From Elsinoe ampelina (lineage: Eukaryota): a stretch of DNA of 32,318 bases. The DNA is taken from the NCBI GenBank assembly GCA_010093995.1, contig ML992550.1:1-32318 (forward strand). The letters run 5' to 3'. Of this stretch, positions 301 through 32,318 are shown piece after piece. Made by a program: the position numbers and the translations under genes. How positions within the stretch are numbered: position 1 is the stretch's first letter; the number at the start of each line of letters is the position of its first letter. The notes under the pieces were generated by a model that saw only the letters and a list, made by a program, of their open reading frames with translations, had not been told where the DNA came from and ran no database searches.

Positions 301-608
301 GATAGTGTTCAGTTCAACCTTGGGATGAACTGAATCAGGGTCTTCTTGGCGCTCCAGCTTATGCCTCGGTTGACACACAGCCCCTCAGCCCCACCATCTC
401 CAAGTGGGGGAGCTTTCCTCTCCATCGGCAAACAACAGACGTCAGAGGTTCACCACCAAGCATCCACATCAAGTCTTCCCAGAGTTCTTCTCGAGCCATT
501 CTTGTACAATATTTCCAAAATCAAATTTCCCATCAGTATTCACAACAAAATATCTCCCCTGCAACCATACGCCTCTCACCCTCTCGCCGCCGCCTCCGGA
601 CCCTCACA

Positions 609-1484
609 ATGCCCCACTCGATTCCCCCTCGCCCTCCATGGCCCAATTCCTCCCCCGCCGCCCTCTCCATAACAATGGACAACATGGCCGAAGCCGCCGA
701 CCTACACCGAGGCCTACACGACCCCTCCACCCCCCTCGGCCAACACCACAGCACCACCACCCAACTCCCGCGCATGCTCGACCTGCTCCGCAGCCGCGGC
801 ATTCACGCGACTTACTTCGTCGAGGGGTGGAACAACGCGCACTATCCCGAGGTGATCAAGAAGGTGCTTGCCGACGGGCACGAGGTGGGGTTCCACGCGT
901 GGCAGCACGAGGTGTGGAAGCTGCTTGATGGGGAGACGGAGGTGGAGAATTTGGACAAGGCGATTGGGGATTTGAAGACGCATGTGGGGGCGACGTACAA
1001 GGGGTTCAGGCCGCCGGGGGGGTTGGTGACGGAGCGGACGCTGGGGTTGATGAAGGAGAGGGGGTTCACGTACCTCTCGCCGGCGGCGGAGCGGTGCGCG
1101 GTGGTGGATGGCGTGGCGATGGTGCCGTTCAGGTGGCCGGAGATTGATGCGTACTTTTACATGGAGAACACGGGGGTGTTAAGGAAGGGGAAGGGGGATG
1201 CGGAGGCGGTGATGACGCCGGTGCAGATGAAGGAGAGGTTGATTGCGCGGATTGAGAGGTTGATGGAGGAAGGGGGATATGTGGCGTTGTTGTTTCATCC
1301 GTTTTTGACGGATAACGAGGAGAAGCATCAGGTCATGAAGGAGGTGGTGGATTTTGTCAAGGAGAAGGAGAAGGAGGGATTATGGGTGGCGCCGTGTAGG
1401 GAGGTAGCGGATTGGGTGTTGAAGAATGAGGTGGCTTTTGGGAATGATCCTGGTTGGGATACGGCAGAGTGGAAGAAGAAGTAA
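609..1484 (+). CDS. Polysaccharide deacetylase (CE4/NodB-like), intronless, no signal peptide, 291 aa
   Basis: CE4 motifs: ITMDN (variant of TFDD), ATYFVEG, GHEVGFHAWQHE (HxxxH metal ligands), GFRPPGG, LLFHPF. Confidence 0.85.
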   Translation: MPHSIPPRPPWPNSSPAALSITMDNMAEAADLHRGLHDPSTPLGQHHSTTTQLPRMLDLLRSRGIHATYFVEGWNNAHYPEVIKKVLADGHEVGFHAWQHEVWKLLDGETEVENLDKAIGDLKTHVGATYKGFRPPGGLVTERTLGLMKERGFTYLSPAAERCAVVDGVAMVPFRWPEIDAYFYMENTGVLRKGKGDAEAVMTPVQMKERLIARIERLMEEGGYVALLFHPFLTDNEEKHQVMKEVVDFVKEKEKEGLWVAPCREVADWVLKNEVAFGNDPGWDTAEWKKK

Positions 1485-1722
1485 GTCAGGGGGATCTGTA
1501 TTGTACATATAATGACTGGGTATCATGACCATGACTTTGTAGCCCGGTGTCCTTGCCCGCCGATGTGACCATTTGTAGACCAAACTCCCACGACAGTGGA
1601 CCAAGATCGGGTTGCCTTGTGGCATGCTTGCAAGCCTGAACTCTGTCCTCTCTTCGCTGAGACCTTCCCTCTCGTTATCGCCAGCATCTTCACCACAGCG
1701 GCCTTGGCATCTGCGCTGTTCT

Positions 1723-2846
1723 TCACATCCATCGACAGCGCTCCTGATAGGCTCGATACTGCTTGGTGATCACCCGTCTGCTCCTGGTGTTCGTCCTCTT
1801 CGCTCCCACCGCCGCACTCCACCTCTGGCTTCCTGCCTGCCATACCCACCTCCTTCTTCGACCAATTCGACCCGACAGCCTCAGCTCTCTCAACTCCAGC
1901 GCGCACCTGTCCTCCATTAGACTCTCCCCTTCGCCTCTCCACACCGTTCCCCTCACCTTCTCGAGATGCCTGAACCACTCTTCCACAACATCCTGCACAT
2001 CGTCTTGGCTCCATAGTCCCACCCCAAGTTCCCCCTCTCTGTCGTATGCCTTTTGAGTTCATACACCCTGACGTACCGCCGCAGCTCACCTTTCAACTCC
2101 TCGTGCCAACCGGCGTGCAAGCCCACAACCTCCAAGATATCCCTCATGGCTGTTTTCAAGACATGTGCGACACACTGCTTGACTACCCACTCAACCATGC
2201 TTCTCTCCTCCCTGGCATCTTTGATACGCTCGTCCTCGGCTTCTTTGAGAGCAAGAGCGCTCATTTGTGCTTCAACCAAGGCAATTTCCGCTCTGACGTT
2301 GGATAGGGTAGAAATATTGTCGTCGATCTTTGTCTGGATGTCGCGGGAAGATAGATGAGCGAAAGGGTGGTTCAAGTCAAGGTCCTTGTCGATGTAAAGG
2401 GACATGATGCGTGTTGTGAGAGACTGTGAGAGGGCGAGCCAGCGGGGCGGTACTGCCGGGGTGAGGGTATTTTGCGACCCGCCGTCCAAACATAGTGGAC
2501 TGACTGGTCTCAGAGTGTTGAGGTCGATTGCATGAATGTGGGACGAGGGAGCGGACAGCAGAACAGGAGGAGACTTGAGTCCTTTGGGATGAGGTGTCCA
2601 ACTGCTGGCATGCTTGACGGGTGCAGCGTCGTTGGAATCTGAAGTACTAGGAGGGATGAAAGCTGGCCCTCCTAATGCACTATCTGCCGGAGATATAGGA
2701 GTGGGCGAGCTCGCGCCGTCGAGGAATTGCGTAGGCATTGCTTTCAGGTCCGCTGGATCGTTATCGCTGGCCTTTGTGCGCATCAATTCGGCAAAGATGC
2801 CTCTCTTCTGTATCGACTTATGGGTCTGCCTCGGTTTTGGTGCCAT
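1723..2846 (-). CDS. Hypothetical protein with a coiled-coil-like segment (tentative 2 exons, ~361 aa)
   Basis: ATG at 2846 (MAPKPRQTHK) in a long ORF containing a helical segment (LSNVRAEIALVEAQMSALALKEAEDERIKDAREE). A putative 38-nt GTACGT...CAG intron (2076-2039) joins it in frame to the 1723..2022 ORF (ELRR/EGELGVGLWSQDDVQ). Without splicing it ends at 1953. Confidence 0.5.
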
Positions 2847-6158: not shown

Positions 6159-9063
6159 ATGGCTCTCGACAGACAGGAATATCCGGCCATGCTGGTAAGA
6201 TTGCCCCGAAGCCTCCGGCGCAGGACTATACTGATGCTGCCAGGCCACGCTGCAGCCCTCGGAAGCAGTGCAGATTCTCGACAGTCGAGTTAAGCTAGTC
6301 AGCCAGATCAATAGCGGTATTGCAGATTGGCTGCAGGTCTGTCATCCCAGACAATCCGACACGCGCACAACGCTGAAACAACATAGGAGAGACGGAGACT
6401 CGAGGAACAGTACTCGCAAGGACTGCGGAAGCTGTCGCGTCGGCCGGCGCTGGCAGATCCGCAAGAGCTAGGGTGGGTGAGCATACACCAGAGCATGGAA
6501 CGAAGCTGACAAGTCAGTGTGTTCGCGACTCCCTGGTCAGCCTTGGTATCAGCACTGGATACACTAGCAGACACCCACCACAACCTCGCGCAGAAGATAG
6601 AAGCAGATGTTGAGACACCGCTGCGACTATTCAACTCGCAACATCGCGACATGACAGCCATGGGGAACATCCAGGGGAATCTGCAATCTTTGGCCAAGGA
6701 CATTGACGGCGCGCAAAAGAAGCTGGACAAGCTAGGTCAAAAGGGCACAGTGCAAAAAGTGGCGGCAGCGAGCAAGGACTTGGACACTGCGCAAGCGCAA
6801 TGGGAGGCTCAAGCACCCTTTGTGTTTGAGAGCCTTCAGGCGCTGGACGAGAATCGACTGAATCATTTGCGCGACGTGCTCACGCAATTTCAGACGCATG
6901 AGGTGGACAAGGTGGAGCGAAATAGGATCGCGGCTGAGCAATGTCTAAATGTCTTGCTCACGGTGGAGACGGCGGATGAGATCAAGACATTTGCCATGCG
7001 CACGAGTAGTGGTGAGCGCCCGACTACGGCTAGGAGACCGCAAGGTATCCAGCAGAGTGCTAGTGTGAGTAGTCTGCCACCTGTAACCACGCCCGGACCT
7101 AGCGACGACAGGGCAAGCCAACGAAGTGATTCAGGTAAGTCACGTGTACGGAGGACGATAGTAGCAGGATTCTCACAGCCAGCAGTATCCGATCTACCGA
7201 CACCAAAAGCGGAAAAACCGCGGGGGCTTAGAAGGCTCGGAACTGTGCTCGGCCGGAGAAGAGAAAGCAAGATTCCGCCAGGTGCGGGAAGGATAGCAGA
7301 GAGCCCTGAACGAACACCGGAGAAGCGACCGAGCAGATTACCCAACAGCTCCACCTTTAGCTCCTTCTCGCGACGAAGTAAAGACCCGGCGCCGACATTG
7401 GAGCCTCCGAGAGAGGATGAAGCAGAGCGCCCACGGTCACCCCTTCGGACAGTATCTAGTCGATCGGACGCAGAGAGACCGCAGGAGTTACCAACGACGA
7501 ATGGCGCTGTGGAGGCTGTTATACCAAATGGAAGCCACCAAAGTGATCTTGCAGGACTGAATTTGGACACCCCACGGCAATTGAGCGAGGCGCCAACAGC
7601 GACGACCGACGGCGAGGTGAGCAGACTCCGAGATAGATACATGGCCGATACTGACGAACGACAGCCGGAGAAGATGGCAGACAAGGGCAAAGCACCAAGC
7701 CTGGATCCAATATCTGCAGCCGAGCAACAAGCAGCAGAGGGAGGCGGATCGGAACAAGGCGTCCCGTCCTTCAAGGTAGATATCAAGGATGCACCTGCAA
7801 CGCAAGAGGCGGGGGATGCAGATGCTCTAGCCGCAATATCGACTACGCTCAGAATGGTTTGTTGCAGTATCTTGCCTCGTGCATCACAACTGACGTTCCC
7901 AGCAAGCGCCTTCGACCGTGGGAGGTAGACGAACGAATACCGTGCGAGGCCGTCGCGACAACCGAGCTAGCATATACGACTCGCTTCCGTCGGTCGTTCC
8001 TGGTCAATTCACGATGCCGCCTGCAGTCCCTCAAGCTCAAGGAATACCCGAGGAGCCCGCATCACCAATTCAAACTTCTGCCGCGAGTGTGCCAATCAGT
8101 TCACCTCAGCCATCAGCACCCGTTTCGCTTCCATCCACGACTGCATTTACTCCGTTCAGCTCTGCAGTACCACACTCCCCACTTTCTGCCATTCGTCCAG
8201 CATCTGCTCAAAGAGACGACGCAGGTAGTGTGCGATCTGGCCGCTCGCACACGTCTACTGCCTCTGCCTCCCATCGCCATCCTGATCTGATCTCTCCTGG
8301 ACTCAACACGAGCATAATAGAAACAGTCTCCGCGTGGTTCGAGAATGGCACACATACTCGTTCTCTCGTTATCGGCGAGGTAGCGGTCGCTTACAACAAT
8401 CCCATTGCCTCTTCCGAGACCGAAGTCATTCGCCTCACCCACTTTGACAAGCTCGACAAAGTCGCTCCTAATCCGGCTTTCCTCAGCAACAAGAGCGATG
8501 AAGCAGGTGTCTACAACCTCAATCTCGGCCAATTAGGCAAAGGCAAACAAACAGCGTTCAAATACCAACTGAACTCCGCCATCTCTGAGGGAGGCAAACT
8601 AGCCCCCCTAATCCTCCAGCCGGTCTGGAAAATCGAAGCAGGCCAAGCCAGCGTCATCCTCAGCTACAGCGCCAACCCCGCCTTTGGCACCGATGACGAG
8701 ATCCTCCTCAAAGACGTCACCCTCGTCCTCCACCTCGGCGAAGGCACCAAAAGCAGCAGCTGTCTCAGCAAACCCGTCGGAACATTCAGCAAAGAGCGCG
8801 GCGTCATCTACTGGACGCTCGGCGAAGTGAAGCTGCGCAAAGGCGAGACAGGAAAGGTACTCGCGCGGTTCCAGACCGAGGGTCAGGCAAAGGTGGGTAA
8901 GGCGGAGGCGAGGTGGACGTTTGAGGGGTCGGGAGGAAGCGGGGTGGAGCTGGAGAGGAGGGAGGAGGATCCATTCAGTGATGGAGAGGGGGGCATTTGG
9001 AAGGGGTTGGAGGAAGGGAAGGTGAGGAGGAGACTGGTGGGTGGGACGTATCAGGGCGTGTAG
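6159..9063 (+). CDS. SYP1: Muniscin/FCHo-family endocytic adaptor (F-BAR, disordered linker, mu-homology domain), 7 exons, ~871 aa
   Basis: Exons 6159-6194, 6244-6336, 6387-6472, 6518-7134, 7186-7616, 7665-7856, 7903-9063 (frame-consistent). N-terminus MALDRQEYPAML...IADWLQERRRLEEQYSQGLRKL. C-terminal muniscin domain GLNTSIIETVSAWFENG...GEVAVAYN...LAPLILQPVWKIE. Confidence 0.88.
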
Positions 9064-9392
9064 ATAATGTGTGTAATTTGGGTGTGGACGAATGTGTTTC
9101 ATACGTGCGCGCTTGTGCTGCTTGTTGCTGTCCTTGTGACGACCATGCTATATCAAGAGTGATATGAAGGTGTTGGCTAGATTGCGTCCCTGAAACATGC
9201 TGGTTGTGAGGGTGGCGGCTTGAAAGCATCGCGTTGAAGCTATAACCTAACGCCATCTTCCATGTCACATCCTTCAACCACAGTCGCACAACATCCTGAA
9301 GTCTCATCCACTTCACATCACGGCGATAGAGGGCTACTCAAAAACGAATATGGCCTAGGATAAACACCAATTAATTGTTTGTAATTTCGATC

Positions 9393-11241
9393 ATGTCATC
9401 CTCCGCAACCTCTGCGGCGGCGAAAGGGGCCACGTACTTGATAGCACTACAGGTCTCATCTAGGGCATTAACGTTCCTTCTTAATCAGATCTTACTTCGG
9501 TTTCTGACACCGGCTACACTGGGCAGAGCTGTACAACTTGAGCTATACTCGATCAGTGTCCTTTTCTTCGCAAGAGAGAGTCTGCGAGTGGCTGTCCAGA
9601 GAGTTGGTTCAACTCCATCAGAGGCAGCTCCAGATGCCACCAAGTCAGAGAACAATCCTACGACTGGAAAGCCAACACAATCTTCGGGAGGGTCGAGTCA
9701 GTCTTCTAAAGCGGTACAGACGGTGGTCAACCTCTCGTACCTATCCTTGGTCCTGGGCATACCACTGGCTCTTCTCTTGGGATATGCATCATGGAAAGGA
9801 CTATCTGGTACGACCGAGTCGAGCACACCCTACATTGGACATGCAATGTTTCTCTACGGACTGGCTGCCATTGTTGAGCTGGCCTCGGAGCCTGGTTTCG
9901 TAGCAGCACAGGCTCTACTCCTTTTCAAGGTCCGGGCTGGAGCCGAAGCAGCAGCGACAGTAGTCAAGACATTCTCGACGGTTGGCAGTGCCATATTCGC
10001 GCATCGAAACGGTCTAGACATAGGCGTCCTCCCCTTCGCCCTCGGACAACTGGCATTCGCCTCAACCCTCCTAGTCTACTACGCCTTCAAGCTCATCCCC
10101 CAAGGCCAACGAGACGGCTTCTCCCTCCTACCCGCCTTCCTCCCCCCACCATCCTCAAAGGCTCCCACCAGCCCAAAGCCTCGACAACCCGAATACCTCC
10201 TCTCCCTCCTCTCCCTCCCCCTCCTCCGCATCGCCACCTCCCTCACCATCCAATCAACCCTCAAATACATCCTCACCCAAGGCGACTCCCTCCTCATCAC
10301 CGCCCTGGCCTCGCTCCCAGACCAAGGCTCCTACGCCCTCGCCTCCAACTACGGCGGTCTGATAGCCCGCATGCTCTTCCAACCCATCGAAGAAACATCC
10401 CGCAACCTCTTCGCGAAGCTCTGCTCATCCCCACCCCCCACCCCATCCTCTCCCCCCACCCCATCCCCCCATCCCCTCCCCCCCTCGCCCCCCTCCCCTT
10501 CCATCCTCCGCGCCCGACAGATCCTCGTGACAATTCTAAAATCCTACCTCCTCCTGTCCCTCCCCATCCTCACCCTCGGCCCCTCCCTCGCCCCCACCCT
10601 CCTCCACCTCATCGCCGGTCCCCGCTGGCTCGCCCTGGGCGCAGGTGACGTCCTCGCTTCGTACGCGTACTACATCCCCCTCCTCGCGCTCAACGGGGTG
10701 TTGGAAGCTTTCGTATCGGCCACGGCAACGAACAGGGAGTTGTACGGGCAGAGTCTCTTCATGGGGGCGTGGTTTCTGGCGTTTGCGGGGACGGCGTGGG
10801 TCGGGGTTGGGAGGATGGGGTGGGGGGCGAAAGGGGTGGTGTTCGCCAATGGGGTGAATATGATGGGGAGGATCGGGTGGGGGTGGGGGTTTGTTGGGGG
10901 GTGGTTTGCGGGCAGGGGAGGGGTGAGTGGTTCTGGTCATGCTGGGATGGGAGGGAGGGCTAATGTTGTGCAGGAGTTGGGGTTGGTGGATGTTTTGCCG
11001 AGGGGAGGGAGTGTGGCGGCTGCGGTGGCGGTGCCGGTTGTGTTGAGGGGGACGGAGGGGTGGTTGGGTGGGTTTGGGGTTGTGGGGGAGTTGGTGAGGA
11101 ATGGGGTCGTGGGTTTGGGGTTGATGGGGGCGATGTGAGTGTGATGGGTGAGAGGAGGGAGTGGATGCTGACTTTTGTAGTGCGGTGTTTGAGAGGGAGT
11201 TCTTTAGGGAGTGTTATGGGTTGGTCAATTCCTCACGCTAG
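9393..11241 (+). CDS. RFT1: Rft1 oligosaccharide (Man5GlcNAc2-PP-Dol) translocation protein, 2 exons, ~600 aa
   Basis: LQVSSRALTFLLNQILLRFL, LELYSISVLFFARESLRVA, LKYILTQGD, YALASNYGGLIARMLFQPIEE, YIPLLALNGVLEAFV. Intron 11135-11180 (GTGAGT...GCTGAC...TAG); last exon reads AVFEREFFRECYGLVNSSR*. Confidence 0.93.
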
Positions 11242-11578
11242 GGCAATGTCATCTCTGGGGGAGGACTCCCGAAGTGCTGTATCAGATCGGGAGCGTACTT
11301 AGGGTCACAGGATGCAGCCTCACACTGCCCCGTAGATATGTTTTATGAGCGTACCTTCGTAGACACCGGTGGATATTCGGCGTTGACATAGCAAGGCTGC
11401 CGATCCCACTCACCTCAGTCACATACAGTCTGCACAGTGTGATCCGGTCAAGCTATATACTCAGCTCTCATGCGCTCGTCCCAATTGTCTATCCTACTCC
11501 TCCGCTCCAATTCATGCCCAACGCTACTCCTATCGCCAACCACCACCTCGTCATCCCCATCAACTGCCCTTCCCTCCA

Positions 11579-12450
11579 TCACCCTCCCCCCTCCTCCCTC
11601 TGCCCTTTCACCTCCGGCCGCGAGTACCAAAACTCCACCGCATTCCTCCTCTCCCCCAGTACAGGAGAAAAGTACTCCCCCTCCAACCGTCCCCCCCTCT
11701 CCCACCCCGTCCGTTCCAGTAGCCTCTGACTAGCAACATGCTCCTCATCCACCAACGCCAACGCCCTATCCCACCCTCCTTGCTCCGCGGTTGGCATCGC
11801 CTCGAACAGAACCGGCAGAAAAGCGAGGAGAGCCTCGGTCATGTAACCTTGCCCTTGGTAGGCGGGATTGAGACTGTAGCCGATTTCGGGGAAGTGTTTG
11901 CAGCCGAGGAGGCCGATGACTTTTCTACGCGACGGAGGGGAGGTGGATGGTGGGGAGACGGAGGGGGGGCGGGGGATGGTGAGGGCGTACATGATTGGGC
12001 TGGTGTTGCGTTGGTGGAGGAGGGTGGTGGTTTCGGCGAGGGAGGCGCGGGGGGAGCGCGTGCTGGGAGTGTCAGAGAGGGGGGAACAGGTGGCGGATCA
12101 TGAGGGGATATGAAGAGTGGATGGGAAGAGAGGACGGAGAGAGGAAGAGCAATGGGGAAGAGGGTCGTAGGTAGGTAGGAGATGCGAGGGGGAGATGGCC
12201 GGATGTCTTGGGAAAGTTGCAGAACGAGAAGTGATATGGCTGCAAGATTGTGCAGGGATGCAGCGAGGGGCAAGCATGACAGTGGAATTGAGAAGGTAAG
12301 AGATGAGCAGGCTCACGTGAACTTCAATGCGTCTGCATAAGTATACCACTCGTGTACGTCTTCTGCATCTTCATATGGGTTGATGGCTCGGAGGATGAGG
12401 CGTTCGGTCTTGATCTCTCGCTCATGGCGGGTGGTTGGTCCTACAGTCAT
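11579..12450 (-). CDS. GNAT (RimJ/RimL-type, Acetyltransf_3) N-acetyltransferase, 2 exons, 205 aa
   Basis: Exon 1 is 12450-12317 (IKTERLILRAI). The 254-nt intron 12316-12063 reads GTGAGC...CTGAC...CAG. Exon 2 is 12062-11579 with EIGYSLNPAYQGQGYMTEAL and HVASQRLLERTGW. Confidence 0.88.
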
Positions 12451-13869: not shown

Positions 13870-13874
13870 TGAGC

Positions 13875-13977: not shown

Positions 13978-14437
13978 CTCACTGTACCAGCTCTGAGCTT
14001 CACGACCGACGATACCAAGTGCTTGAATAAGATGGCCGAGTTGCGCGAGCTGTTCTGAATGAGGCTCTGCTGGAGTGAGTGTGAGCAAAGAACGGTATCG
14101 GCCTATGAGATCCGACGTTGCGGCCCCCGCCGGCGAGAGAAAATTTGGTCATCGTCATTTCTTGGCATGCGTTTCCCAGCCGGAAATCCAGTGGGACAAT
14201 CTCAGATCCCGACCTCGACTTCGCTAATTGGAGCCACTAATCACAAAAAGTCGGCCAAGATAGGCCTCAATTGAATCATTTACCGTGCAGTAGATGTCTC
14301 TCAACTTTGTCCGTGACAATCCGAATCATTCCGGTTAAATCTGAGCGTGATATTGGACATCTCCGCGAGCAGCTTACAAAGATAGCTCCCAAAGCAGCCC
14401 ACTAAACTGACCACGAACCCCACCAAAGCCCGCTAAG

Positions 14438-14532
14438 GTCAGTCCTCCGATTCAACAACACCTCAAAGTCCGGACCGCCAAAACATCCCACTTCCTTCTT
14501 CTCATCCCGTCACTGACATTTTACTGCCACAG
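14438..14532 (+). other. Putative 5' leader intron of GND1
   Basis: AAG|GTCAGT donor at 14438, ACTGAC branch at 14512-14517, CACAG acceptor ending at 14532. Confidence 0.7.
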
Positions 14533-14595
14533 CTGGCTCCTTCACAAAGACTCTCGACAATCACAAACCACCTGACCAAACCTCCATCGCCCGCC
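14533..14595 (+). other. In-frame N-terminal extension of GND1 carrying a PTS2 peroxisomal signal (RLSTITNHL)
   Basis: 21 stop-free codons in frame with the ATG at 14596: LAPSQRLSTITNHLTKPPSPA. The nonapeptide R-L-x5-H-L is at 14548-14574. Confidence 0.7.
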
Positions 14596-16314
14596 ATGTC
14601 CACGGAAGCTGTGTAAGTCCGACCCCTCATTCTATCGACCACGAAAATATTTCTCCCAACGATACCGGACAAATTGGGCTGACGGACATGTTTCCAGTGG
14701 AGACTTCGGTCTCATCGGTCTGGCCGTCATGGGTCAGAACCTGATCCTCAACGCCGCTGACCACGGCTTCACTGTCGTCGCCTTCAACCGAACTGTCGCA
14801 AAGGTCGACCGCTTTTTGGAGAATGAGGCAAAGGGCAAGTCCATTGTTGGCGCCCACTCGATCAAGGAGTTCTGCCAGAAGCTCAAGAAGCCCCGCCGCA
14901 TGATGCTCTTGGTCATGGCAGGCAAGCCAGTCGACGACTTTATCGAGCTCCTCTTGAAGGAGGGTGGACTCGAGGAGGGTGATATCATTATTGATGGTGG
15001 TAACTCTCACTACCCGGACACCAACCGCAGGACCGAGTACTTGAAGACCAAGGGCATCCGCTTCGTCGGTAGCGGCGTCTCTGGGGGTGAGGAGGGTGCA
15101 CGCTACGGACCCAGCATCATGCCTGGTGGTAACGAGGAGGCTTGGCCATACATCAAGGACGTTCTCCAGAGCATCTCCGCAAAGTCCGACGGTGAGCCAT
15201 GCTGCCAATGGGTCGGTGACCAGGGCGCTGGCCACTACGTGAAGATGGTGCACAACGGCATTGAGTATGGTGACATGCAGCTCATCTGCGAGGTCAGTAG
15301 AGTCAATCGTGGAAGAAGGAAAAGACACTAATATCAGAATCAGGCCTACGATATTCTCAAGCGTGGTCTCGGTCTTTCGAACAAAGAGATGGGTGATGTC
15401 TTTGCCAAATGGAACACTGGTGTACTCGACTCATTCTTGATTGAGATCACTCGCGACATCCTCTACTTCAACGATGATGATGGAACTCCTCTCGTCGAGA
15501 AGATCCTCGATTCCGCTGGCCAGAAGGGTACCGGAAAGTGGACTGCCATCAACGCTCTCGACCTGGGTATGCCAGTCACCCTCATCGGTGAGGCCGTCTT
15601 CGCTCGTTGCTTGTCATCTCTCAAGGAGGAGCGTGGCCGCGCTGCGTCAATCCTCCCAGGCCCAAGCCCCAGCTTCAGCGGTGACAAGCAGCAATTCATC
15701 GACGACCTTGAGCAGGCCTTGTACGCCTCCAAGATCATCTCATATGCCCAAGGTTTCATGCTGATCCAGAATGTGAGTATACCCATGCAAATTCAGTTTA
15801 CGATTGTCTGACGAATTTCAGGCCGCCAAGGAATACTCATGGAAGCTCAACAAGCCAGAGATTGCCCTTATGTGGCGTGGTGGATGCATCATTCGCTCGG
15901 TCTTCTTGAAGGACATTACCTCTGCGTACCGTGAGAACCCTGATCTCGAGAACTTGCTCTTCCACAAGTTCTTCACCAACGCCATCACCAAGGCCCAGGC
16001 CGGGTGGAGGAACGTCGTCGCAAAGTCTGCCGTCTGGGGTATCCCAACCCCGGCCTTCAGCACTGCCCTGTCCTTCTACGATGGTTACAGGACCAAGGAT
16101 TTGCCCGCCAACTTGCTTCAGGCCCAGCGTGACTACTTCGGTGCCCACACCTACCAGATCAAGCCCGAGTTCGCTAGCGACAAGCACCCCGTCGGAGCCT
16201 ACAGCCACACGAACTGGACAGGGCGTGGTGGCAACATCAGGTTCGTCCTCCGCGCGTGTAAAAATTTCGGCTCATTGACTAATTTGAACCAGTGCAAGTC
16301 AATACAACGCGTAA
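14596..16314 (+). CDS. GND1: 6-phosphogluconate dehydrogenase (decarboxylating), 5 coding exons, 493 aa
   Basis: Exons 14596-14612, 14698-15292, 15344-15772, 15822-16240, 16293-16314. Motifs [77 protein letters not shown]; ends GGNISASQYNA*. Confidence 0.98.
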
Positions 16315-21375: not shown

Positions 21376-22650
21376 ATGACAAAACAGCTTAATATTCTTG
21401 TGAGCGGGGCAGGCATCGGCGGCCCAGTCCTCGCCTACTGGTTGAACAAGGCCGGACACAAGGTCACAATCGTTGAACGAGATGCACAGCTACGGACAAC
21501 AGGACAGAGTGTAGACATTCGAGAAGCAGCAGTCGAGGTCATTCGCAAGATGGGCCTTGAACAAACAATCAGAGATACCAGTACCCACGAAGCCGGTGTA
21601 GCTTTTGTGGATCCCAACGATAAAGTGAGAGCACTTTTCAAAGCGACAGGCAGCACAGAAGTCCAGTCATTCACCTCAGAATTCGAGGTATTCCGCGGTG
21701 ACCTGGCCAAAATCTTCTATTCCACTACAAAAGACCTCTGCACTTACATCTTCGGCGAGTACATCACCTCCATCGATCAAGACAACGACGGCTGCTACGT
21801 CGAGTTCGCCAATGGTAGCGACGCCGCCCGCTACGACCTCGTCATCGCCGCCGACGGCCTCGGCTCCAAAGTCCGCGCCATGGTCTTCAACACGTCCACA
21901 CGAGAACACATCTGGTCCCTCGACACCTTCGCAGCCTACTTCACCATCGACAAAGACCTCCTCAAAGGCGACCAATACAGCCGATGGTACAACGCCCCAG
22001 GCGGGCGCTGCATCCTCCTCCGACCCGACCCCCAACGCCGCACCCGCGCCCACCTCTTCGTCATCAACCACGGGGACCAAGCCCAACTCGACACCTATCG
22101 CGCCGCCTACCAACAAGGCATGGACCGCGTGAAGCAGCTGTTCACCGAAGAGTTCAAAGACGCCGGCTGGCTCACCCCCGAAATCCTCGCCTGCGCCCCC
22201 GACGCCAAAGATTTCTACGGCAGCGAAATCGCCCAGATCCGCACCGAGAAACTCTTCTCCGGCCGGGTAGCGCTGGTCGGGGACGCGGGGTACTGCCCCA
22301 CCCCGTTCACGGGGATGGGGACAAGTCTCGCCATGATCGGCGCTTATATCCTCGCTGGGGAGATCAACAAGGATGCCGAGGACGTGCCCGGTGCGTTGCA
22401 GAGGTACGAGGATATCATGCACCCGTATGCCAAGAAGGTGCAGCAGATTCCGAGGAGTATGCCCAAGTTGGCGAACCCGATGAGTGCGTGGGGGATCAAG
22501 GTCCAGTTGGCGATACTGTCGCTTGTGAGTTGGCTCAAGGTGGATGTCTTTGCGAATTGGTTGCAGGGGTTTGAGGTATTCAAGGGGAAGAAGTTTCAGT
22601 TGCCGGAGTATACTTGGAGTGACCAGAGGGATTCGGTGCTGGTTGGGTAG
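21376..22650 (+). CDS. FAD-dependent monooxygenase/oxidoreductase (FAD_binding_3, UbiH-like), intronless, 424 aa
   Basis: ILVSGAGIGGP (GxGxxG), DLVIAADGLGSKVR (DG motif), RVALVGDAGYCPTPFTGMGTSLA (GD motif). First ATG in the frame is at 21376. Confidence 0.92.
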   Translation: MTKQLNILVSGAGIGGPVLAYWLNKAGHKVTIVERDAQLRTTGQSVDIREAAVEVIRKMGLEQTIRDTSTHEAGVAFVDPNDKVRALFKATGSTEVQSFTSEFEVFRGDLAKIFYSTTKDLCTYIFGEYITSIDQDNDGCYVEFANGSDAARYDLVIAADGLGSKVRAMVFNTSTREHIWSLDTFAAYFTIDKDLLKGDQYSRWYNAPGGRCILLRPDPQRRTRAHLFVINHGDQAQLDTYRAAYQQGMDRVKQLFTEEFKDAGWLTPEILACAPDAKDFYGSEIAQIRTEKLFSGRVALVGDAGYCPTPFTGMGTSLAMIGAYILAGEINKDAEDVPGALQRYEDIMHPYAKKVQQIPRSMPKLANPMSAWGIKVQLAILSLVSWLKVDVFANWLQGFEVFKGKKFQLPEYTWSDQRDSVLVG

Positions 22651-22917
22651 ATTGGCTTGGTTTCACGGGTGCCGGTGGTGGGTCAAGGTGGGATACAAGG
22701 AGGGAGGACTTTTCATGATTAATGCTTGATGTTTGCATTGCTTGGCTGGCGGGGTTAGGACAAACGAAGGCATTATAGCGTAGCATGCTTCTACAGCAGA
22801 GCAGGATATTTAGCAAATAGATTCCAATTGAAGTGACATGGTATCATAACAATTCCCCGGCTTTTTCTCACCTCCTCTCTAAACGCCATCGCTATGCTCC
22901 AACCCAAAGATGCTCAT

Positions 22918-24308
22918 CTACTCCTCGGTAGCCAAAACCATCTTCTCCCTCTCCGACCTCCTCTTCACCTCCTTCTTCCGACTATGCCTCCTCTCATTCT
23001 CCTCCTTGCGCTTCATCGCCCGCAACTCCTCCCCTTTAATCTCCCCGGCCTTCTTCACCACCTTGGGCACATGCCTATGCCTCGCTATCCGCTTCACCTC
23101 AGGCATATGCGCGTACCTCTTCTTCAACGCCTCATCGTACTCCAAAGCCTGCCTCTGCCTCGCGCTCTTCACGCCTTGCCGCTTGCTCGCTTCCGCCCGC
23201 CACAGCCGCACGTTCCCGTCGTCCGACCCCGTCATGATGTAGTTGTTGTCGCCGGACCAGGCGCAGGAGAAGACGCGCTGCATGCGTTTCGTGTGGTAGA
23301 TGTCGCGGCTGTGGCCTTGGTTGCGGCGCCAGAGACGGACGGTGCGGTCGTACGAGGCCGAGACGAGTTCTTCGCCGGTGGGCGACCAGGAGACGTCCAT
23401 GACTGCGGCGACGTGGTCTTTGAGGACGTTGAGGGAGCGTTTCATGTTGCGGGTGTCGAAGAGGTAGATGTTGTGGTCTTCGTTGGCGACGGCGAGGTTG
23501 AAGGGTTCCATGGGGTTCCAGGCTATGGAGTTGGAGGCGAGGTTGAGGACTGTGCGGTGGAGGGCGGTGGAGGTGCGGAGGTCGTAGAGGATGAGGGAGC
23601 GGTCGGTGCCGGTCGAGGCGAGGAGGGAGGTTTCGGATTGGTTGAAGGCGACGGAGGTGATGGTGTCTACTGATGTGGGCCAGGAGATGGTTTGGGATGG
23701 GGTTGAGGATGGCCGCGTGAGGTCGTAGAGGGAGATGACTGATGATGCTGCGGCGACGGAGGGAATGGTGCGGTGGCGGGTGATTGAGTTGAAAGCGTTC
23801 GGTCCTAACCAGGTTGCTAAAGGCGCGGAACCAGAGGAGGTGTTGTATGGGTCGTACATCTTGATGGATCTGTCGCTACCACAGGATATGACCTTGTGAT
23901 CTTCGGTCCAGCACATTCCCTTGACCAGATTCTCGTGCGCTGAAGTCTGCCATACCTCGTCTCTACTTGTGAGATCCCATACTTTTATCACGCCATCTCC
24001 GCTGCCAGAGGCGAACCGCTCTAACGACTTTGGGTCTTTTGCGATTGTGTATACGCCGTCTACATGTCCTCTTCCAAGTTGAGCCAGGAACGGCGCAGCA
24101 AACATGCGCTCCAGTTTTGTAGCATTCAGAGCCCGAGTGTATTCCCTTGCACGCTCGAATGGGTGTAGAGCGGGGTCCAGATTTCGAGGTTGTCGAGAGA
24201 CATTCGTTCCTGGCGCCTGCTGCGACTCGGCAGAGCGCGAGAGGGCTTTGATCTTCTACAGGAGGTATCAGTAAATAGTACAGCCGCGCCGCACATAAGA
24301 CTTACCAT
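22918..24308 (-). CDS. SOF1: U3 snoRNP-associated WD40 protein Sof1 (DCAF13), 2 exons, 446 aa
   Basis: Coding part of exon 1 is the ATG only (24308-24306). Intron 24305-24256. Exon 2 reads KIKALSRS...RNLDPALHPFERAREYTRALNATKLERMFA, then WD repeats, SRDIYHTKRMQRVF and the Sof1 C-terminal domain. Confidence 0.96.
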
Positions 24309-25910: not shown

Positions 25911-26135
25911 ACACTAGGTCCTCCAGATCATCACGTTAGCTGGCGCCTCTTCAATGCACCGTGCATGACCTGTCCTCATTCTTGCTGTGCTGTGTCCGTA
26001 TGTTGATGTCCTCCAATCAGATGGAGCCCGGTCCAGGTCTGTCAGGCCCTAGTGTCTTTCGCCACGAGACTTTCCTCGTCCAATGTACCGAGCCAGTGTA
26101 CTTCAGTTCGATTGCCGGAACATTGAACCCGCTTC

Positions 26136-26882
26136 TCATATCACCTCCAAATCCCCCCTCCTCACCCCCTCCCTCACCACCCTCCACCTCAACACCCACA
26201 CATCCCCCCTCTTCAACTCCACCTCCCCCACCCCCTGCTCCCCTTGCACCTCCACCGTCCCCGCATCCCTCAATACCCTCACAAACACCGCAGTGTCCAA
26301 ATCCGGCTGATCAACCATACTCACGCCCCCTCCCGTATCATCCATCTTCTGCAGCTGCCCAGGAAACGCCGCAAGGAAACTACTCTTATAATGCCCCTCC
26401 AGCAACGCCGTATGATGTTCCAAATACCTCATCTCCATCTCGCTCAACAGCGGACTCTTCTCCCTCCCATGCCCTTCTCGCCCATCCATATCCCCGTCCA
26501 TACCCCCCTCCCCCTCCGGTCCCCTCCCCCGCCCTCCTCCCGCCTGTCCCCTCGCCAACCCCAAATACCAAAGCGGAAACGCATCCATCTTCCCCAACCT
26601 GGTCCTGAGCAGCGAGCGCAGCAGGAACTTGACCCGCTCCAACTCGGTCTGTATCACGACGAGCGCGAAATTGGAGCCCGGGTCCATGGCGGAGGTGAGG
26701 TCTTCGATGCGCGTGATCTGGGATGCGAGGCGGGTGGTGATGCGCTGGATCAGGGCGGAGGGGTAGGGGAGGAGTTCGGGGGATAGCCGCTCGGTGGTCC
26801 AGGCGCGGGTGAGGAGGTGTAGGTCTTGCTGGGAGGGGGGAAGGGTGGGGGAGAGGGTGGAGAGGATGTCGTCTATGTCCAT
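26136..26882 (-). CDS. SLD5: GINS complex subunit Sld5, intronless, 248 aa
   Basis: MDIDDIL...LLTRAWTTERLSPELLPYP, IQTELERVKFLLRSLLRTRLGKMD, MVDQPDLDTAVFVRVL, GDVWVLRW. Confidence 0.93.
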   Translation of the reverse strand: MDIDDILSTLSPTLPPSQQDLHLLTRAWTTERLSPELLPYPSALIQRITTRLASQITRIEDLTSAMDPGSNFALVVIQTELERVKFLLRSLLRTRLGKMDAFPLWYLGLARGQAGGGRGRGPEGEGGMDGDMDGREGHGREKSPLLSEMEMRYLEHHTALLEGHYKSSFLAAFPGQLQKMDDTGGGVSMVDQPDLDTAVFVRVLRDAGTVEVQGEQGVGEVELKRGDVWVLRWRVVREGVRRGDLEVI

Positions 26883-27209
26883 TTTGGGGGGGTGGGGTGA
26901 GGGATGGGAAGTTTGGGTGGAAGGTGGGAGGTGGGATGGAGGGAGAGGGGAGAGGTGGTGGTGCGGGGTGGGGAGGGGTGGGGCGCGTGGCGTGTCGCGG
27001 GCGGTCGGAATTGCAGATGTCTTCGAGGGGAGACTTGGAATTTGCACGACTGGTGCTCGACTACCAAGTTAGGTCTGTAGGTAGGTTTCACGTTGTGCGG
27101 TTGTCTATTTCTTGTGATGTTTAGGCAGGCTTGTCGTGGTGTGGCTGTGGCATCAATATATACAATTTGGAAGCTATATACAATTTTCGGATTCCGAGGC
27201 TAGAATCAC

Positions 27210-28560
27210 CTATGCAACCAACGAATTTGCCCATACTTCGATGTTCGAGTATCCACTCGCGTCCTTCTTCAACGAGTCGTTGACGTTAGGGTCAGAACCA
27301 ATTTGCCTTTCGACATCATCTGGGATACCATCGCCATCAGTGTCAACAGGCTTCGCACCACCCTTTAGTGCTGCAGGGTCGTAGCTCATAGGAGCAGCCT
27401 TCTCATCCGAGATGAGCTTGCCAGACTTGCCAAATGACTTGACTTCGTTGATAAGGAAAGTGTCGACAGCGTCTCTGACTTTGGAAGCTCCCACTTTTGC
27501 GAGCACGGCGTCTACCACTTGGCTTGCTGGTAGGACCTCTGCAGGACTAGGATAATTGAATTTTGCCGTGGCGAGCACCATGCCGCCATAGTTGGATGAG
27601 GATGCACCGAGTGCTTTGCCGTTGAGGCTGCCATCCTTGTCAGAGTCGTAGAAGTTGTCGAGCACGAAGCCGGAAAAATTCTCATTGCCGCGGGTGAAGG
27701 CCGTCACGGATGTACTGGGTCCGCTGATGAAGTAGTTGCCGATGATATTGGCTGAGGATTTCCCGGAAGAGTCGCCTGCGATGTAGCCGCCACCACCGCC
27801 CCCTTTGTATGTCAGTATTGCACATACAGTGAGCAATAACGTCGCTTACAGTTGTAAATGACGTTGTTGGTAAAGTCGTTAACACCCTTGACTTTGGGAT
27901 TGCGGGTCTTGTTGTCAATGTACAGATTGCGGAACAGTGACACACCGCCGTCGGTCTGGATCAGGCCGCCGCAGGAGTGAGTCTCGAGACCTTGGCCGAT
28001 AATACTGTCCTGGATGGTGATGTTCGAGGCGGTACCGCTGATTGAAAAGGTCTCGTCTCGACCCCAGGTGAAGGACACATGGTCAAAGATCTGCCATGGT
28101 AAGTAAGTGTGACTATATTTCCGTAAACTTGTCCTACCATGTTCTCACCCTCGGCGAGTGTGGAAGCGTCCTTGCCGGAAGTTCCTCCCTTGCCCATTCT
28201 GATCCTCATATATCTCACAATCGACTCGTCGGCGTTCGAGAAAGACCATCCGTCGCCGTAAGTAGCGATGCCATCACCAGGAGCTGTCTGGCCGAGAATG
28301 GTGGTCGATTTTGGGCAGACTAGGCGCGATGCCAGATTGATAGTCCCTCCGACTGCAAATACTATCACTCTGTTCGGTTTGGACAGGCCATCTCTCAGAG
28401 ACCCAGCTCCAGCATCGTCCAAGTTGGATACGACAAAGACCTCCCCATTGCGACCGCCCACGGCATTTGCACCAAACCCCTCAGCACCGGGAAAAGCAGG
28501 AATAGCAGAAGTGAAAGGAAGACTGGCAGCCAGGCCAGCTAGCACACCGAAAGACTTCAT
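27210..28560 (-). CDS. plyC: Secreted pectate lyase (PL1, plyC-like), 3 exons, 418 aa
   Basis: Signal peptide MKSFGVLAGLAASLPFTSA followed by AFPGAEGFGANAVGGR, GSLRD, TILGQTAPGDG, DHVSFTWGRDE, RNPKVKG and DTDGDGIPD. Exons 28560-28138, 28090-27850, 27802-27210. Confidence 0.9.
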
Positions 28561-28723
28561 GGTATGAATCGAAATGGCGAAAGAAACGCGAGAACAATGC
28601 ACAAACAAGCAGAAACGCGACAAATGAAGCACTGTACCTCTTGGTTGTCGAAGACGCATTCGTGGATCATCTTCTGAAACGCGCTTCTCCAGATTGACCT
28701 CCGTGTCATAAAAGGCACGACTC

Positions 28724-28826
28724 GCGGGGTAGAAGAGAACGGCGGTCATCAACGACGGTCGAGACTAAGACTGGAAGGAGTGTATAGACTGTTTTGAGCA
28801 ATGTAGATGTGGTCACGCTGGCGGGG
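28724..28826. promoter_or_regulatory. Possible CreA/Cre1 catabolite-repression sites upstream of the pectate lyase
   Basis: SYGGRG matches (GCGGGG) at 28724-28729 and 28821-28826. The motif is short and degenerate. Confidence 0.25.
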
Positions 28827-29399
28827 AGGGTGAGTGAAGAAGCGTGACTCTGAGAATGCGGCCCCCTCCGGAGCAATCGATTTCGTCCGCCGCGTGAGGA
28901 ATCGGGAAGGCAGACCGACGAAGACATCGGCCGTCTACAGGACTGCACAAAGCTCGTGAGACACTGCTCACTAATCTCGTACTGTAAGCAGAGGTGCGAA
29001 GCGTGCCTCTGTTGTCTCAGTCAATGGCAGAAACGTGGGTGCGGTCGAGCCCTTGTATAAGAGTCATGGAATCCAGTTACCCTTCTGTGTCAGGCGAGTA
29101 CTGTAAGCCCTCACCTGTCAAGCAGAAACCTCTGTCGGGTTCACGGTTTCACCGAGACCCTCGCCGAGTTGTGACGAACAAACTCCACAGTCTAAATCCT
29201 ATCGCGTCGATCCAACAACTGCGAACACGACCGGGAAGGACGGCCATTCGTCAAACCTTCAGGAACAACATGTGGTCGTACTGTAGATCAGGAAGACATT
29301 CCGACATGACGATCTATTAGGAACCAGAGATGAATAGTTTGTGTTGGACGACTTCACCTCTTGTAGGAAACAAAACGGCATGCAGCTGTTATCAACTTT

Positions 29400-30058: not shown

Positions 30059-30093
30059 GTCGTCGTCGTCGTCGCTGTGGTGTTTTTTTTTTT
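30059..30093. repeat. (GTC)5 microsatellite followed by a T11 tract
   Basis: gtcgtcgtcgtcgtc at 30059-30073; T-run at 30083-30093. Confidence 0.8.
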
Positions 30094-30609
30094 AATTCCC
30101 CGTCCCGCATGGCATGGCATCGACACTGCTCAACGTTCGGTTACGTGGTGGCTTGATCCGTCAATCTACACTCTGTGAGATTACCTCCAGGCTTATCTTG
30201 ATTCTCGACAACCACCCTTTAGCGTGTCTACGGTAATCTAGCTGGTGTTCGAGCTGCTTTCCGTCCCTCCCACGGATCGCCACGGAACGTCTGTGCAGAC
30301 GAAATGCCGGTAGGCCACCCTTTGCGAATCGTGCCTCGTCTCTTGTCAGAGCCACCAAGCCATCGATTTCCCCGTTGTCCATGCGGCCATCATGCAGCTT
30401 GGAAACCGTCCCAAGCCGATGGGCATGGCTCAAGCTCACGGATGTTCCTATGGAACTTTAATGCCCTTTGCAGTCTTCGCCAGTATGGTGGGTCTCGCTT
30501 TGTACATATACCCATCTAGCTTTGCACTTACACTCCGTGTAGGATCAGCGGTGGTTTTCTTTTCTCCTTCTACCTCCCCTTGTCCAAGGACAACACATTC
30601 ATTACCATC

Positions 30610-31848
30610 ATGGCGGCACAGGAGACCACAACGTTTGACAATACCTTTGCGCGGGATCTTGCGACAGAGTCTTGGGCTTTGTATGGAGTCGGAGCATTCA
30701 TTTTCGTTCTCAGAGTGTGAGTTGGTGGCACATCAAGCTCATGGCGGCACGCCTGATTTCAGGACAGTTACACAAAGCTGCGATACTCCGGCATAAGGAA
30801 AATCGACGCCGATGACATTGTCGCCATCATTGCACTCGGATTATACACCGGGTTGATAGTATGCATGAACGTTATCGCCTCGGGTGGAGGTAGCAACTTG
30901 TACGAACCCGGAGCCGATGCAGACTTTACACCAGAAGATATCAAAGAGCGCATATTTGGCTCAAAGATTGTCGTAGTCTCTGAACAGGTAAGAGACTTGT
31001 CTGCGACACAAAAGCTCTTCCTAATCGCAACAGTGCATGTTGTGCACCATCTACTCGCTCAAAGCATGCGTCCTTCTCTTCTATCGCCGCCTGACCAAAG
31101 GCTTGACGAAGCAGAAGATGGTCAAATACGTCGCCATCGCCGTCTCCATCGGCTGGATCTCCACTGAAATCGCCTTCTTCACCGCCTGCCGACCCTTCTA
31201 CGGCTACTGGGCCGTACCACCACCAAACCCCCAATGCACCACCCTCGAAAACTACGCCATCATACAAGCCTGCTTCAACATCCCCACCGACCTCGCCATG
31301 CTCTCCATCTCCATCCCACTCGTCTACCGCCTCCAAGTCCCCTTGAAGCAAAAGCTCCTCGTCGGCGCCCTCTTCAGCATGGGAATCTTCGTCGTACGTC
31401 CCCCTCTCCCCACTCCCTGTCTACCCCACTAACCCCTCCCGCACAGGTCGTCGCCGCCCTCCTCACCAAAATCTACAACCTCTCCGACGTCTACTCCACC
31501 TCGTACATGCTCTGGTACATCCGCGAAGCTTCCGTGGCGACCTACGTCGCCAACCTCCCCGCCATCTGGCCCTTGGTGCGGCACGTCTTCCCCTGCCTCC
31601 GCTCCGTCAGCAGCATCAAGTACTCTGGCCAAGTCAAGTACGGGGACGTGTACGGGGGCCATTCCGGGATGATGCGGGGTACCGGCAAGCAGAAGACGGG
31701 CAACGCGACGGTCATCGACGCCATGGAGCTGGACGAGCAGGCCTTGACGAGGTATAACCGGGGGGACAGCGGGAGCGACAAGGGTCAGGATTTGGGGGTT
31801 TTGGTGCATACCACGGTGGAGGTCACGAAGGAGAGGGAACAGGTTTAG
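30610..31848 (+). CDS. PTH11-like (fungal rhodopsin-domain, non-CFEM) integral membrane protein, 4 exons, 362 aa
   Basis: Exons 30610-30716, 30768-30987, 31034-31393, 31447-31848. ESWALYGVG..LRVYTK, DADD, GSKIVVVSEQ, LKACVLLFYRRLT, CRPFYGYW, NIPTDLAML.IP, LFSMGIFV, WYIREASVA.YVANLP. Confidence 0.87.
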
Positions 31849-32318
31849 ATGTTTCCTTGCGGCTAGAACGGCGTTTTTGGGGGCACACCGGAGAGGGTGA
31901 TGGGAGCACAGGTTGGGCATTCTCTGACGAGCAGTCACTATTCACGACTGGGGCGCGGGCATACATACGATGGATATCGTTCACTTGATCGATCACCTGG
32001 GCGGCAGAATCTGGCATGTCGCGATTGCGACGATTGGCGCGATACCCTTTGTTACACTGTACTATAGCAGCGAAATTATTGTTTATTCCTACCCAAGCCG
32101 GTCATATCTAGAGACTACGCCGAGTCGTCCGAGACTAATTCTATTCCCGTGGATACTGTCTTGGCTAAAGTGTATAACAGAATAGAGCAAATCGTCTGCT
32201 TACACTCCAACGTGCACGTTGCGATGTCCTCGAAACGAACCGTTTGCGCGCTGGGCACTTTTAAGGAACGGATTTGGTCACGAACGGGTCTTATCTTGAA
32301 CACAAGAAGCCATGGGGG

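Follow-up and report, generated by a model that had tools for sequence, protein, structure and literature searches.

Blocks of opposite GC skew in a 32-kb stretch of Elsinoe ampelina DNA are anchored to the 3' parts of genes

Why does one strand of a fungal contig flip abruptly, again and again within some 32 kb, from several hundred C-rich bases to several hundred G-rich ones? The question is raised by a stretch of 32,318 nucleotides from Elsinoe ampelina (NCBI GenBank assembly GCA_010093995.1, contig ML992550.1, positions 1 to 32,318 of the forward strand), which is referred to below, at its full length, as the window. An inspection of the letters (hereafter the sequence-only reading) had noticed eight such switches, at about 830, 8830, 10690, 11840, 22260, 23240, 26650 and 31630, always in the order C then G and, as it was put, independent of gene strand. 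It proposed a process acting at fixed sites (replication origins, or recombination and double-strand break resection hotspots) or selection for fold-back structures. The computational analysis presented here shows that the paired blocks are composition domains anchored to genes and not chromosomal sites. In about half of the genes, the transcription unit closes, over its final 0.8–1.2 kb, with two blocks: one poor in G and rich in C, then one poor in C and rich in G, the latter ending at the stop codon or in the poly(A) region. Each such pair is called a unit below, and its two blocks are called the C arm and the G arm.

The switches were located with a statistic, S, defined as G minus C over the 300 nt rightward of a position minus G minus C over the 300 nt leftward. 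Nine C-to-G switches in the window (S from 104 to 251, Table 1) exceed all of 200 block shuffles, whose maximal S has a mean of 61 and a ceiling of 84; the tenth-ranked value in the window is 77. The arms were called by a three-state hidden Markov model (HMM) on the GC skew of the window. It assigns 8588 bases to skewed states, compared with 0 bases in each of 20 shuffles, and delineates eight abutting pairs of a C arm and a G arm, the G arm of SYP1 alone and a C-rich segment that stands by itself in the GND1 leader. By both measures, discrete switches thus exist beyond shuffled controls. The eight switches of the sequence-only reading each lie about 50 nt or less from a computed one, although a ninth, near 2298, had been overlooked. 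The polarity was also correctly perceived, as all nine units run from C arm to G arm in the sense of their gene.

The amplitude is high. In a 300-nt sliding profile, GC skew ranges from about -0.6 to +0.7 at these switches. Among the HMM units, C-arm skew is -0.32 to -0.62; G arms show a sense skew of +0.31 to +0.71 across 276–672 nt, and C arms carry a like skew on the antisense strand. The plus strand is nearly devoid of G from 10050 to 10680 and nearly devoid of C from 10700 to 11150. GC content is 0.54–0.65 in the arms versus about 0.52 outside. The profile averaged across switches consists of two plateaus that are weakest beside the centre and have sharp outer edges, with no decay from the centre. 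The transition between abutting blocks takes about 100–150 nt, and the skew is limited to about 500 nt on each side of the switch, after which it is zero. No AT-skew switch accompanies it in the window units: averaged AT skew is flat across the switches and both arm types contain 0.20 A and 0.21–0.22 T, so that the earlier wording, "G(T)-rich", is not generally valid. Arm strengths correlate within units (r=0.90, n=8) and are visibly unmatched across the three boundaries at which a G-rich block meets a C-rich one on the plus strand. Abutting pairs in the order C then G outnumber those in the order G then C by 8 to 1.

Eighteen genes were recognized in the window from Pfam matches on long open reading frames (ORFs), homology searches and spliced RNA contigs. 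Their best protein hits bear the name E. ampelina, and the nearest relatives after these come from E. batatas, E. fawcettii, E. australis, Sphaceloma murrayae and Myriangium duriaei. The RNA contigs were obtained from four runs; their spliced joints show that RNA is present in them, and as unstranded assemblies they carry no information on strand, start, end or level. Each of the nine units falls inside one gene, so that half of the genes (9/18) carry a strong unit. In all nine, the G arm ends between 115 nt before and 191 nt after the stop codon of its own gene. All nine switches lie 200–800 nt upstream of a stop codon, where only 33.5% of the window positions qualify (P ~5e-5). A C-then-G sequence is its own reverse complement, so plus- and minus-strand genes look identical on the plus strand; since the G arm ends at the 3' end of its own gene in every unit, C then G is the 5'-to-3' order of the gene. 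To call the switches independent of gene strand is therefore misleading. The sequence-only reading had also named an effect explained entirely by relative position in the transcript as the outcome that would count against it, and the anchoring of all nine units to gene ends comes close to that outcome.

The relation between a unit and its gene depends on gene length. In genes of about 0.9 kb (deacetylase, SLD5), the unit spans the whole gene and begins in the leader. Long genes (RFT1, SOF1, monooxygenase) have no skew in their 5' part; here the C block begins 400–650 nt inside the gene, lies in its middle and abuts the G block. The sense skew of the last 500 nt exceeds that of the preceding 500 nt in 14 of the 16 genes long enough to be tested; RPN6 and the RRM gene show a weak change of the same sign. 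As already noticed by eye, GND1, the P450 gene, RPN6 and plyC lack the switch, and none of them has an HMM unit. Six of the nine units form three tail-to-tail gene pairs with abutting boundaries. In the convergent pair FAD monooxygenase/SOF1, the mRNA ends given by RNA contigs (22768–22823 for the former, 22808 for the latter) lie beside the boundary at 22841/22842 where the two G arms meet.

A single RNA contig (21150–24249) runs unbroken over this pair, and another (24903–26829) joins RPN6 to SLD5. Both are compatible with overlapping 3' ends and cannot prove a single transcript.

Table 1. Skewed units and the lone C-rich segment of the window. Arms of minus-strand genes are given in the sense direction; skews are those of the plus strand, C-rich side first.
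Feature	Span	Strand	C arm	G arm	GC skew	S (position)	Gene landmarks
Polysaccharide deacetylase (PF01522)	374..1493	+	374-821	822-1493	-0.50 / +0.52	183 (822)	ATG 609; stop ends 1484
Hypothetical gene	1641..2666	-	2666 to 2295	2294 to 1641	-0.42 / +0.40	126 (2298)	ATG 2846; stop 1726 or 1526, model-dependent
SYP1-like muniscin (muHD domain), weaker unit	7950..9096	+	~7950-8820, weak	8821-9096	~ -0.19 to -0.28 / +0.55 (sliding profile)	146 (8812)	stop ends 9063
RFT1, strongest unit	10028..11224	+	10028-10694	10695-11224	-0.61 / +0.71	251 (10695)	ATG 9393; stop ends 11240
GNAT acetyltransferase (PF13302)	11400..12311	-	12311 to 11814	11813 to 11400	-0.57 / +0.59	216 (11814)	stop at 11582; introns shown by RNA contigs
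FAD monooxygenase	21822..22841	+	21822-22264	22265-22841	-0.32 / +0.31	104 (22311)	stop ends 22650
SOF1 (Sof1 and WD40 Pfam matches)	22842..23851	-	23851 to 23236	23235 to 22842	-0.54 / +0.46	159 (23235)	stop ~22918-22921; RNA contig begins at 22808
SLD5, whole gene	26128..27150	-	27150 to 26658	26657 to 26128	-0.62 / +0.58	226 (26680)	ATG 26882 (mapped via orthologues); stop ~26136-26139
PTH11-like (fungal rhodopsin domain, PF20684)	31132..31917	+	31132-31630	31631-31917	-0.46 / +0.37	145 (31606)	stop ends 31848
Lone C-rich segment, GND1 leader/first intron region	14386..14603	+	14386-14603		-0.56		no G partner

The bias does not stem from the encoded proteins. Third-position skew is -0.64 in C arms and +0.59 in G arms, versus -0.05 to -0.07 in controls. 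The corresponding values are -0.17, +0.52 and +0.15 to +0.17 at first positions, and -0.42, +0.24 and -0.15 to -0.26 at second positions; as codon positions 1 and 2 are shifted, the proteins are affected too. Third positions of G arms contain A.10, C.15, G.59 and T.15, and C arms mirror these values (T.14, G.13, C.57, A.17), whereas C and G amount to about 0.3 and 0.25 elsewhere in the window; the flip of synonymous codons seen by eye is thus borne out. GC content at third positions (GC3) is 0.69–0.74 in the arms versus 0.51–0.59 elsewhere. Every arm has one strand on which G rises at the expense of C and A and, to a lesser extent, of T, a symmetric "anything to G" signature. In RFT1, the skew at fourfold degenerate sites is +0.20 and 0.00 over the first 211 residues, -0.96, -0.76 and -0.72 along the C arm and +0.73, +0.83 and +0.65 along the G arm.

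Non-coding sequence inside the arms is as skewed as coding sequence. The G arm of RFT1 holds a spliced intron (11135–11180, from RNA contigs) and a putative one (10923–10975), with skews of +0.83 and +0.67, and the C arm of GNAT contains an intron of 254 nt (12063–12316) with a sense skew of -0.63. Two leaders have skews of -0.49 and -0.38, the first being the 235 nt of 5' flank taken in by the C arm of the deacetylase gene; the C arm of SLD5 includes about 270 nt of leader. The skew of 3' flanks is +0.38 (3' untranslated region (UTR) of the FAD monooxygenase gene, whose RNA contigs end at 22768–22823) to +0.60, with +0.57 in the GNAT flank, where the G arm extends 182 nt past the stop codon; the G arm of the deacetylase gene ends 9 nt past its stop codon. 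As the bias is strongest at third and fourfold positions and runs through introns and flanks, it is no protein constraint, as the sequence-only reading had stated for introns and UTRs. In the SYP1 unit, the HMM calls the G arm alone (+0.62) and the C arm is weaker.

Three candidate causes were ruled out on the composition of the arms. Introns within arms are skewed like exons, which excludes cDNA-mediated 3' gene conversion. The CpG odds ratio is 0.99 in the arms versus 0.90 elsewhere, which excludes methylation and CpG decay. As for selection for G-quadruplexes, their motifs show no enrichment (21 versus 18.4 in shuffles), and G runs are below shuffles (z -4 to -7.5). With 254 nt, the GNAT intron is also long compared with the 46–121 nt found at 12 other spliced joints, and it is C-rich like the neighbouring exon.

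The effect of the bias on proteins was followed by comparing residues with the majority residue of outgroups and scoring each replacement by G minus C at codon positions 1 and 2. In RFT1, replacements toward C number 30 in the C arm, 13 in the G arm and 17 in the rest of the protein, and those toward G number 12, 34 and 14, respectively (C arm versus G arm, P=5e-5). In SLD5, the counts are 21 toward C and 1 toward G in the C arm and 7 and 17 in the G arm (P=3e-6). For RFT1, the replacement bias of E. batatas is intermediate and that of E. fawcettii, E. australis and Sphaceloma is near neutral; the SLD5 pattern is common to E. batatas, S. murrayae and E. fawcettii. Low-complexity inserts match the arm in which they lie: Pro/Ser/Thr-rich in the RFT1 C arm (10425–10500) and Gly/Arg/Asp/Glu-rich in the SLD5 G arm (~26430–26560). 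The latter stretch is omitted from the public model of 216 amino acids and kept in the E. batatas protein of 248 amino acids. These comparisons of sequences show that the bias is derived, directional and stronger in the Elsinoe lineage, in which the skew has pushed amino-acid replacements in RFT1 and SLD5.

The pattern recurs in other fungi. A metagenome search with an RFT1 alignment gave 79 fungal loci. In the 57 loci of at least 3 kb (666 kb, duplicates included), switches with S of at least 100 occur at 1.13 per 10 kb, versus 2.78 per 10 kb in the window. In 465 kb of non-redundant sequence from other fungi, the HMM finds 29 abutting units in the order C then G and 7 pairs in the reverse order. 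The RFT1 segment homologous to the G arm is more G-skewed than the segment homologous to the C arm in all 31 non-redundant orthologues (means +0.17 and -0.17). Six strongly skewed orthologues switch at residues 411–463, and the window RFT1 at 419–435; this position recurs in fungi whose proteins are 43–52% identical. At RFT1 fourfold sites, the mean skew of other non-redundant loci (36–59 per bin) is -0.32 and -0.37 just before the switch codons and +0.23 after them. The skew pattern of RFT1 is thus weaker in other fungi than in the window, and matching of arm strengths within units is also weak there (r=0.38, n=27).

A Pfam search on 135 ORFs around the 29 units of other fungi gave a strand to 22 of them, of which 21 could be evaluated. 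The G arm ends about 110 nt or less from the end of a supported ORF in 18 of these 21 units and is internal in three; four of the 18 end at the first RFT1 exon and not at the gene end. In genes other than RFT1, 8 of 10 units have a G arm ending within about 100 nt of the ORF end, and the eight include those of SLD5 (locus L028) and of two GNAT homologues, 39–42% identical. These two GNAT homologues are head-to-head with RFT1, whereas the GNAT gene of the window is tail-to-tail with it. The GNAT unit is therefore kept in a different gene arrangement, that is, it goes with the gene and not with the chromosomal neighbourhood.

Two tandem C-to-G cycles are found in the RFT1 gene of eight of these loci (L059, at 9899–11917, L023, L025, L034, L046, L070, L044 and L045), with the cycle boundary about 40–100 nt or less from a central intron or loop (query residues ~247–267). 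The window RFT1 has no intron at these residues and only the second cycle, which starts from residue 212. The RFT1 units of other fungi that stop at the central intron had suggested that each exon might form a unit. Such a rule is not general: the C arm of GNAT contains a whole intron, and the G arm of RFT1 spans a spliced intron and a second, putative one.

The blocks of the window represent a known fungal pattern of opposite GC skew in an extreme, box-like and sharply bounded form. In dozens of fungi, McLean and Tirosh (2011; PMC3315797) described a C bias at gene 5' ends and a G bias at 3' ends; Dothideomycetes such as Pyrenophora tritici-repentis and Stagonospora nodorum are among the species that they list. 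According to the sections of their paper drawn on here, the skew reaches the UTRs, is present at fourfold sites, affects amino-acid usage and leaves A and T flat; it was described from averages, in which it is weak, ramps linearly at the two gene ends and is flat in between, and its cause was left open between mutational and adaptive ones, such as cytidine triphosphate (CTP) supply and polymerase pacing. As far as these sections go, the window is alike in that the sense strand is C-biased upstream and G-biased toward the 3' end (9/9 units; 14/16 genes), with skewed silent sites, UTRs and amino-acid usage and nearly unaffected A and T. It differs in that single genes reach fourfold skews of -0.96 and +0.83, blocks abut and form plateaus instead of ramps, the C block of long genes lies in mid-gene, about half of the genes have no unit and RFT1 of other fungi can contain two tandem cycles. 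When a 5'-end C bias with ramps at both ends was sought in this one 32-kb window, the 5' half of long genes was found unskewed and strong units were confined to nine of 18 genes. What is new here is the amplitude, the box-like abutting blocks, the mid-gene C block, the gene-by-gene presence or absence and the tandem RFT1 cycles of other fungi.

A second published pattern concerns gene starts. Fujimori et al. (2005; PMC555766), in the part of their paper relevant here, reported a peak of C over G surrounding transcription start sites, both in plants and in some fungi. The C-rich sense leaders of GND1, deacetylase and SLD5 resemble this peak as so described. Unlike it, the pattern of the window has a G-rich partner block, and C blocks starting 400–650 nt into long genes are not explained by it. 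No later explanation of the fungal 5'-C/3'-G skew and no paper on the pattern in Elsinoe were found among open-access papers and preprints (supplements excluded), which agrees with the earlier remark that there is no settled explanation.

The gene-end anchoring, the non-protein nature of the signal, its recurrence in homologous genes, the symmetric to-G signature, the matched arms and the directional replacements favour a gene-anchored reading linked to transcription. On balance, the cause is probably a non-adaptive, strand-asymmetric substitution bias of this kind. The process might be viewed as follows. The strand that gains G would be, in the terminal block, the non-template strand displaced by sense transcription and, in the upstream block, the strand displaced by antisense transcription. 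Along its distal half, the sense transcript would leave its non-template strand exposed through R-loops or pausing, and an antisense transcript of about 1 kb, likewise along its distal half, would expose the other one. Base loss on the exposed strand would then be bypassed with C inserted opposite the lesion, changing any base to G. Insertion of C opposite abasic sites is known from yeast work on highly transcribed genes. A growing G skew would favour further R-loops, and this feedback would explain both the on/off look of the units and their plateaus. The G arms do show a G-rich non-template strand over several hundred nt, as R-loop formation would call for. This particular chain of exposure by R-loops or pausing, C insertion opposite base loss and feedback is put forward tentatively, as one possible mechanism. 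A bolder version, which must be considered doubtful, would make each pair of blocks the footprint of paired sense and antisense transcription units of about 1 kb, in which R-loop exposure, lesion bypass to G and runaway mutational feedback would have switched on gene by gene and would have grown so strong in the Elsinoe lineage that conserved proteins were rewritten and Pro/Ser-rich and Gly/Arg-rich inserts arose.

R-loop-prone domains of GC skew reportedly occur at mammalian CpG-island promoters and terminators, as Ginno et al. are said to have described in 2012 and 2013. The likeness consists of a G-rich non-template strand at the gene 3' end and a polarity that flips around a point with bidirectional transcription. 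The mammalian domains differ in being mainly promoter-centred and in having no known C-rich block ahead of the terminal G-rich one in the same gene.

Several observations weigh against the transcription-linked bias. In long genes, the C block lies beside the G block in mid-gene, whereas the published ramps place it at the 5' end. The nine genes with a strong unit share no discernible trait that separates them from the other nine. In other fungi, there are the three internal units and the four that end at the first RFT1 exon. The antisense transcripts and R-loops are things that we purely infer, the C-insertion step leans on yeast work, and conversion bias may contribute, as GC is raised in both arms. 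Finally, recent substitutions were examined in two close metagenome loci, L059 and L076, polarised by a third, L062. Among 24 polarised changes in arms, the G-rich strand shows nine losses of G versus one gain; the differences between L059 and L062 are symmetric. If real, this 9-to-1 loss hints at a fixation bias (selection or conversion) or at decay, and not at a mutation bias.

A fixation-kept bias is what selection would provide, and an adaptive hypothesis is in print (PMC3315797, in the part drawn on above). The shortage of C in the terminal block and of G in the upstream block would be kept as a control of RNA polymerase II, either through pacing by CTP supply or because the blocks terminate or insulate in both directions by R-loops in a compact genome with tail-to-tail genes. 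Selection would fit the three tail-to-tail pairs with abutting boundaries and the RNA contig that covers one of them, and the predicted loss of G is the one seen in the triple of related loci, although at few sites. Such selection is nevertheless unlikely to be the cause. Conserved residues of RFT1 and SLD5 give way to the bias, at a cost that would be high for a signal of pacing; nine of the 18 genes do without a unit; and G runs, G-quadruplex motifs and arm pairing do not rise above shuffles.

Recombination seems quite unlikely. It would act through recurrent meiotic breaks, placed either at the switch or at the boundaries of units, in gene ends free of nucleosomes, combined with GC-biased, strand-asymmetric heteroduplex repair or damage to resected strands. 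The raised GC3 of the arms speaks for it, as does an arm length of about 0.5 kb, on the order of resection and conversion tracts. At the three tail-to-tail boundaries, moreover, G-rich 3' tails lie on both sides, the polarity that can be derived for damage to resected tails. GC-biased conversion, however, would raise GC from AT alike on both strands and peak at the centre; instead, C arms have half the usual G and G arms half the usual C, and G at third positions of C arms (0.13) is scarcer than A and T, a result that is out of reach of GC-biased conversion alone. Strand-switching clusters of damage flank resected double-strand breaks, and the window resembles them in its mirror-image change of composition, which extends about 0.5–1 kb to either side of a point. 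With a break at the switch, however, damage to 3' tails would by derivation give the reverse polarity, G then C, and a change of AT skew through C-to-T mutations, neither of which is seen. The plateau is lowest beside the centre and does not decay, C-then-G pairs predominate over G-then-C ones in the window as in other fungi (29 to 7), and arm strengths match within units and not across the three boundaries. The earlier suggestion of a recombination or resection hotspot at the switch hence fits poorly, given the plateaus and the halved G of C arms.

Selection for fold-back between C arm and G arm, as a long hairpin in RNA or DNA, is highly improbable. Composition alone permits strong pairing (duplex energies of -253 to -514 kcal/mol). 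In the seven units tested (all but PTH11 and SYP1), however, the real arms form duplexes no stronger than those of arm-wise shuffles (z -2.47 to +2.00) and share no excess of 7-mers with the reverse complement of the partner arm (z -0.89 to +0.90), which leaves this proposal of the sequence-only reading unsupported.

In bacterial replichores and at human skew-domain origins, the jump in GC skew is accompanied by one in TA skew. Replication origins at the switches, with a G-rich lagging-strand template on each side, would share with these jumps the C-to-G polarity on the reference strand (a derivation from background in the part of PMC3315797 drawn on here) but are barely conceivable: nine switches lie in 32 kb, three pairs of them merely about 1 kb apart, all within coding sequence at 200–800 nt from a stop codon, a landmark to which origin jumps are not known to be tied; the skew is back to zero by about 500 nt instead of persisting over a replichore or tens of kilobases, no AT-skew jump goes with it, and the same codon position of RFT1 recurs in distant orthologues.

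What gives fungal genes their 5'-C/3'-G polarity has been an open question since 2011. The signal of the window is about ten times the published averages, is sharply bounded and visibly reshapes the essential proteins RFT1 and SLD5, which makes the competing causes directly testable in one small genome. Amino-acid changes and low-complexity inserts driven by composition can mimic adaptive divergence and mislead gene models, and a local C-to-G skew switch should not be read as an origin or a hotspot before gene ends are checked. If true, runaway R-loop feedback would give the fungal skew puzzle of 2011 a mechanism and a test organism with a high signal.

Some other features of the window can be mentioned. 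The lone C-rich segment of GND1, whose leader contains introns at 14436–14530 and 14613–14697 (RNA contigs), represents the C bias that fungal genes ordinarily show at their start sites. The minus-strand ORF at 27213–27845, a putative plyC, has a bacterial TSP3-repeat as its sole Pfam match, and no Pfam match was found for the neighbouring ORFs 27815–28144, 27964–28764 and 28709–29020. The hypothetical minus-strand gene is backed by a public model and by an E. batatas orthologue that is 73% identical; the public model ends at 1726, whereas the orthologue aligns on to 1526 in a different frame, and in this region (1526–1956) one of the two models probably has an incorrect last exon, judging from this alignment. 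RNA contigs of other runs leave the window sequence at 12974, 26151–26191 and 26963 for unrelated C-rich or G-rich low-complexity sequence; these departures in or near skewed stretches suggest strain differences or assembly breaks. Finally, positions 1–373, which abut the upstream side of the first C arm, are AT-rich (GC 0.31 versus about 0.53 elsewhere).

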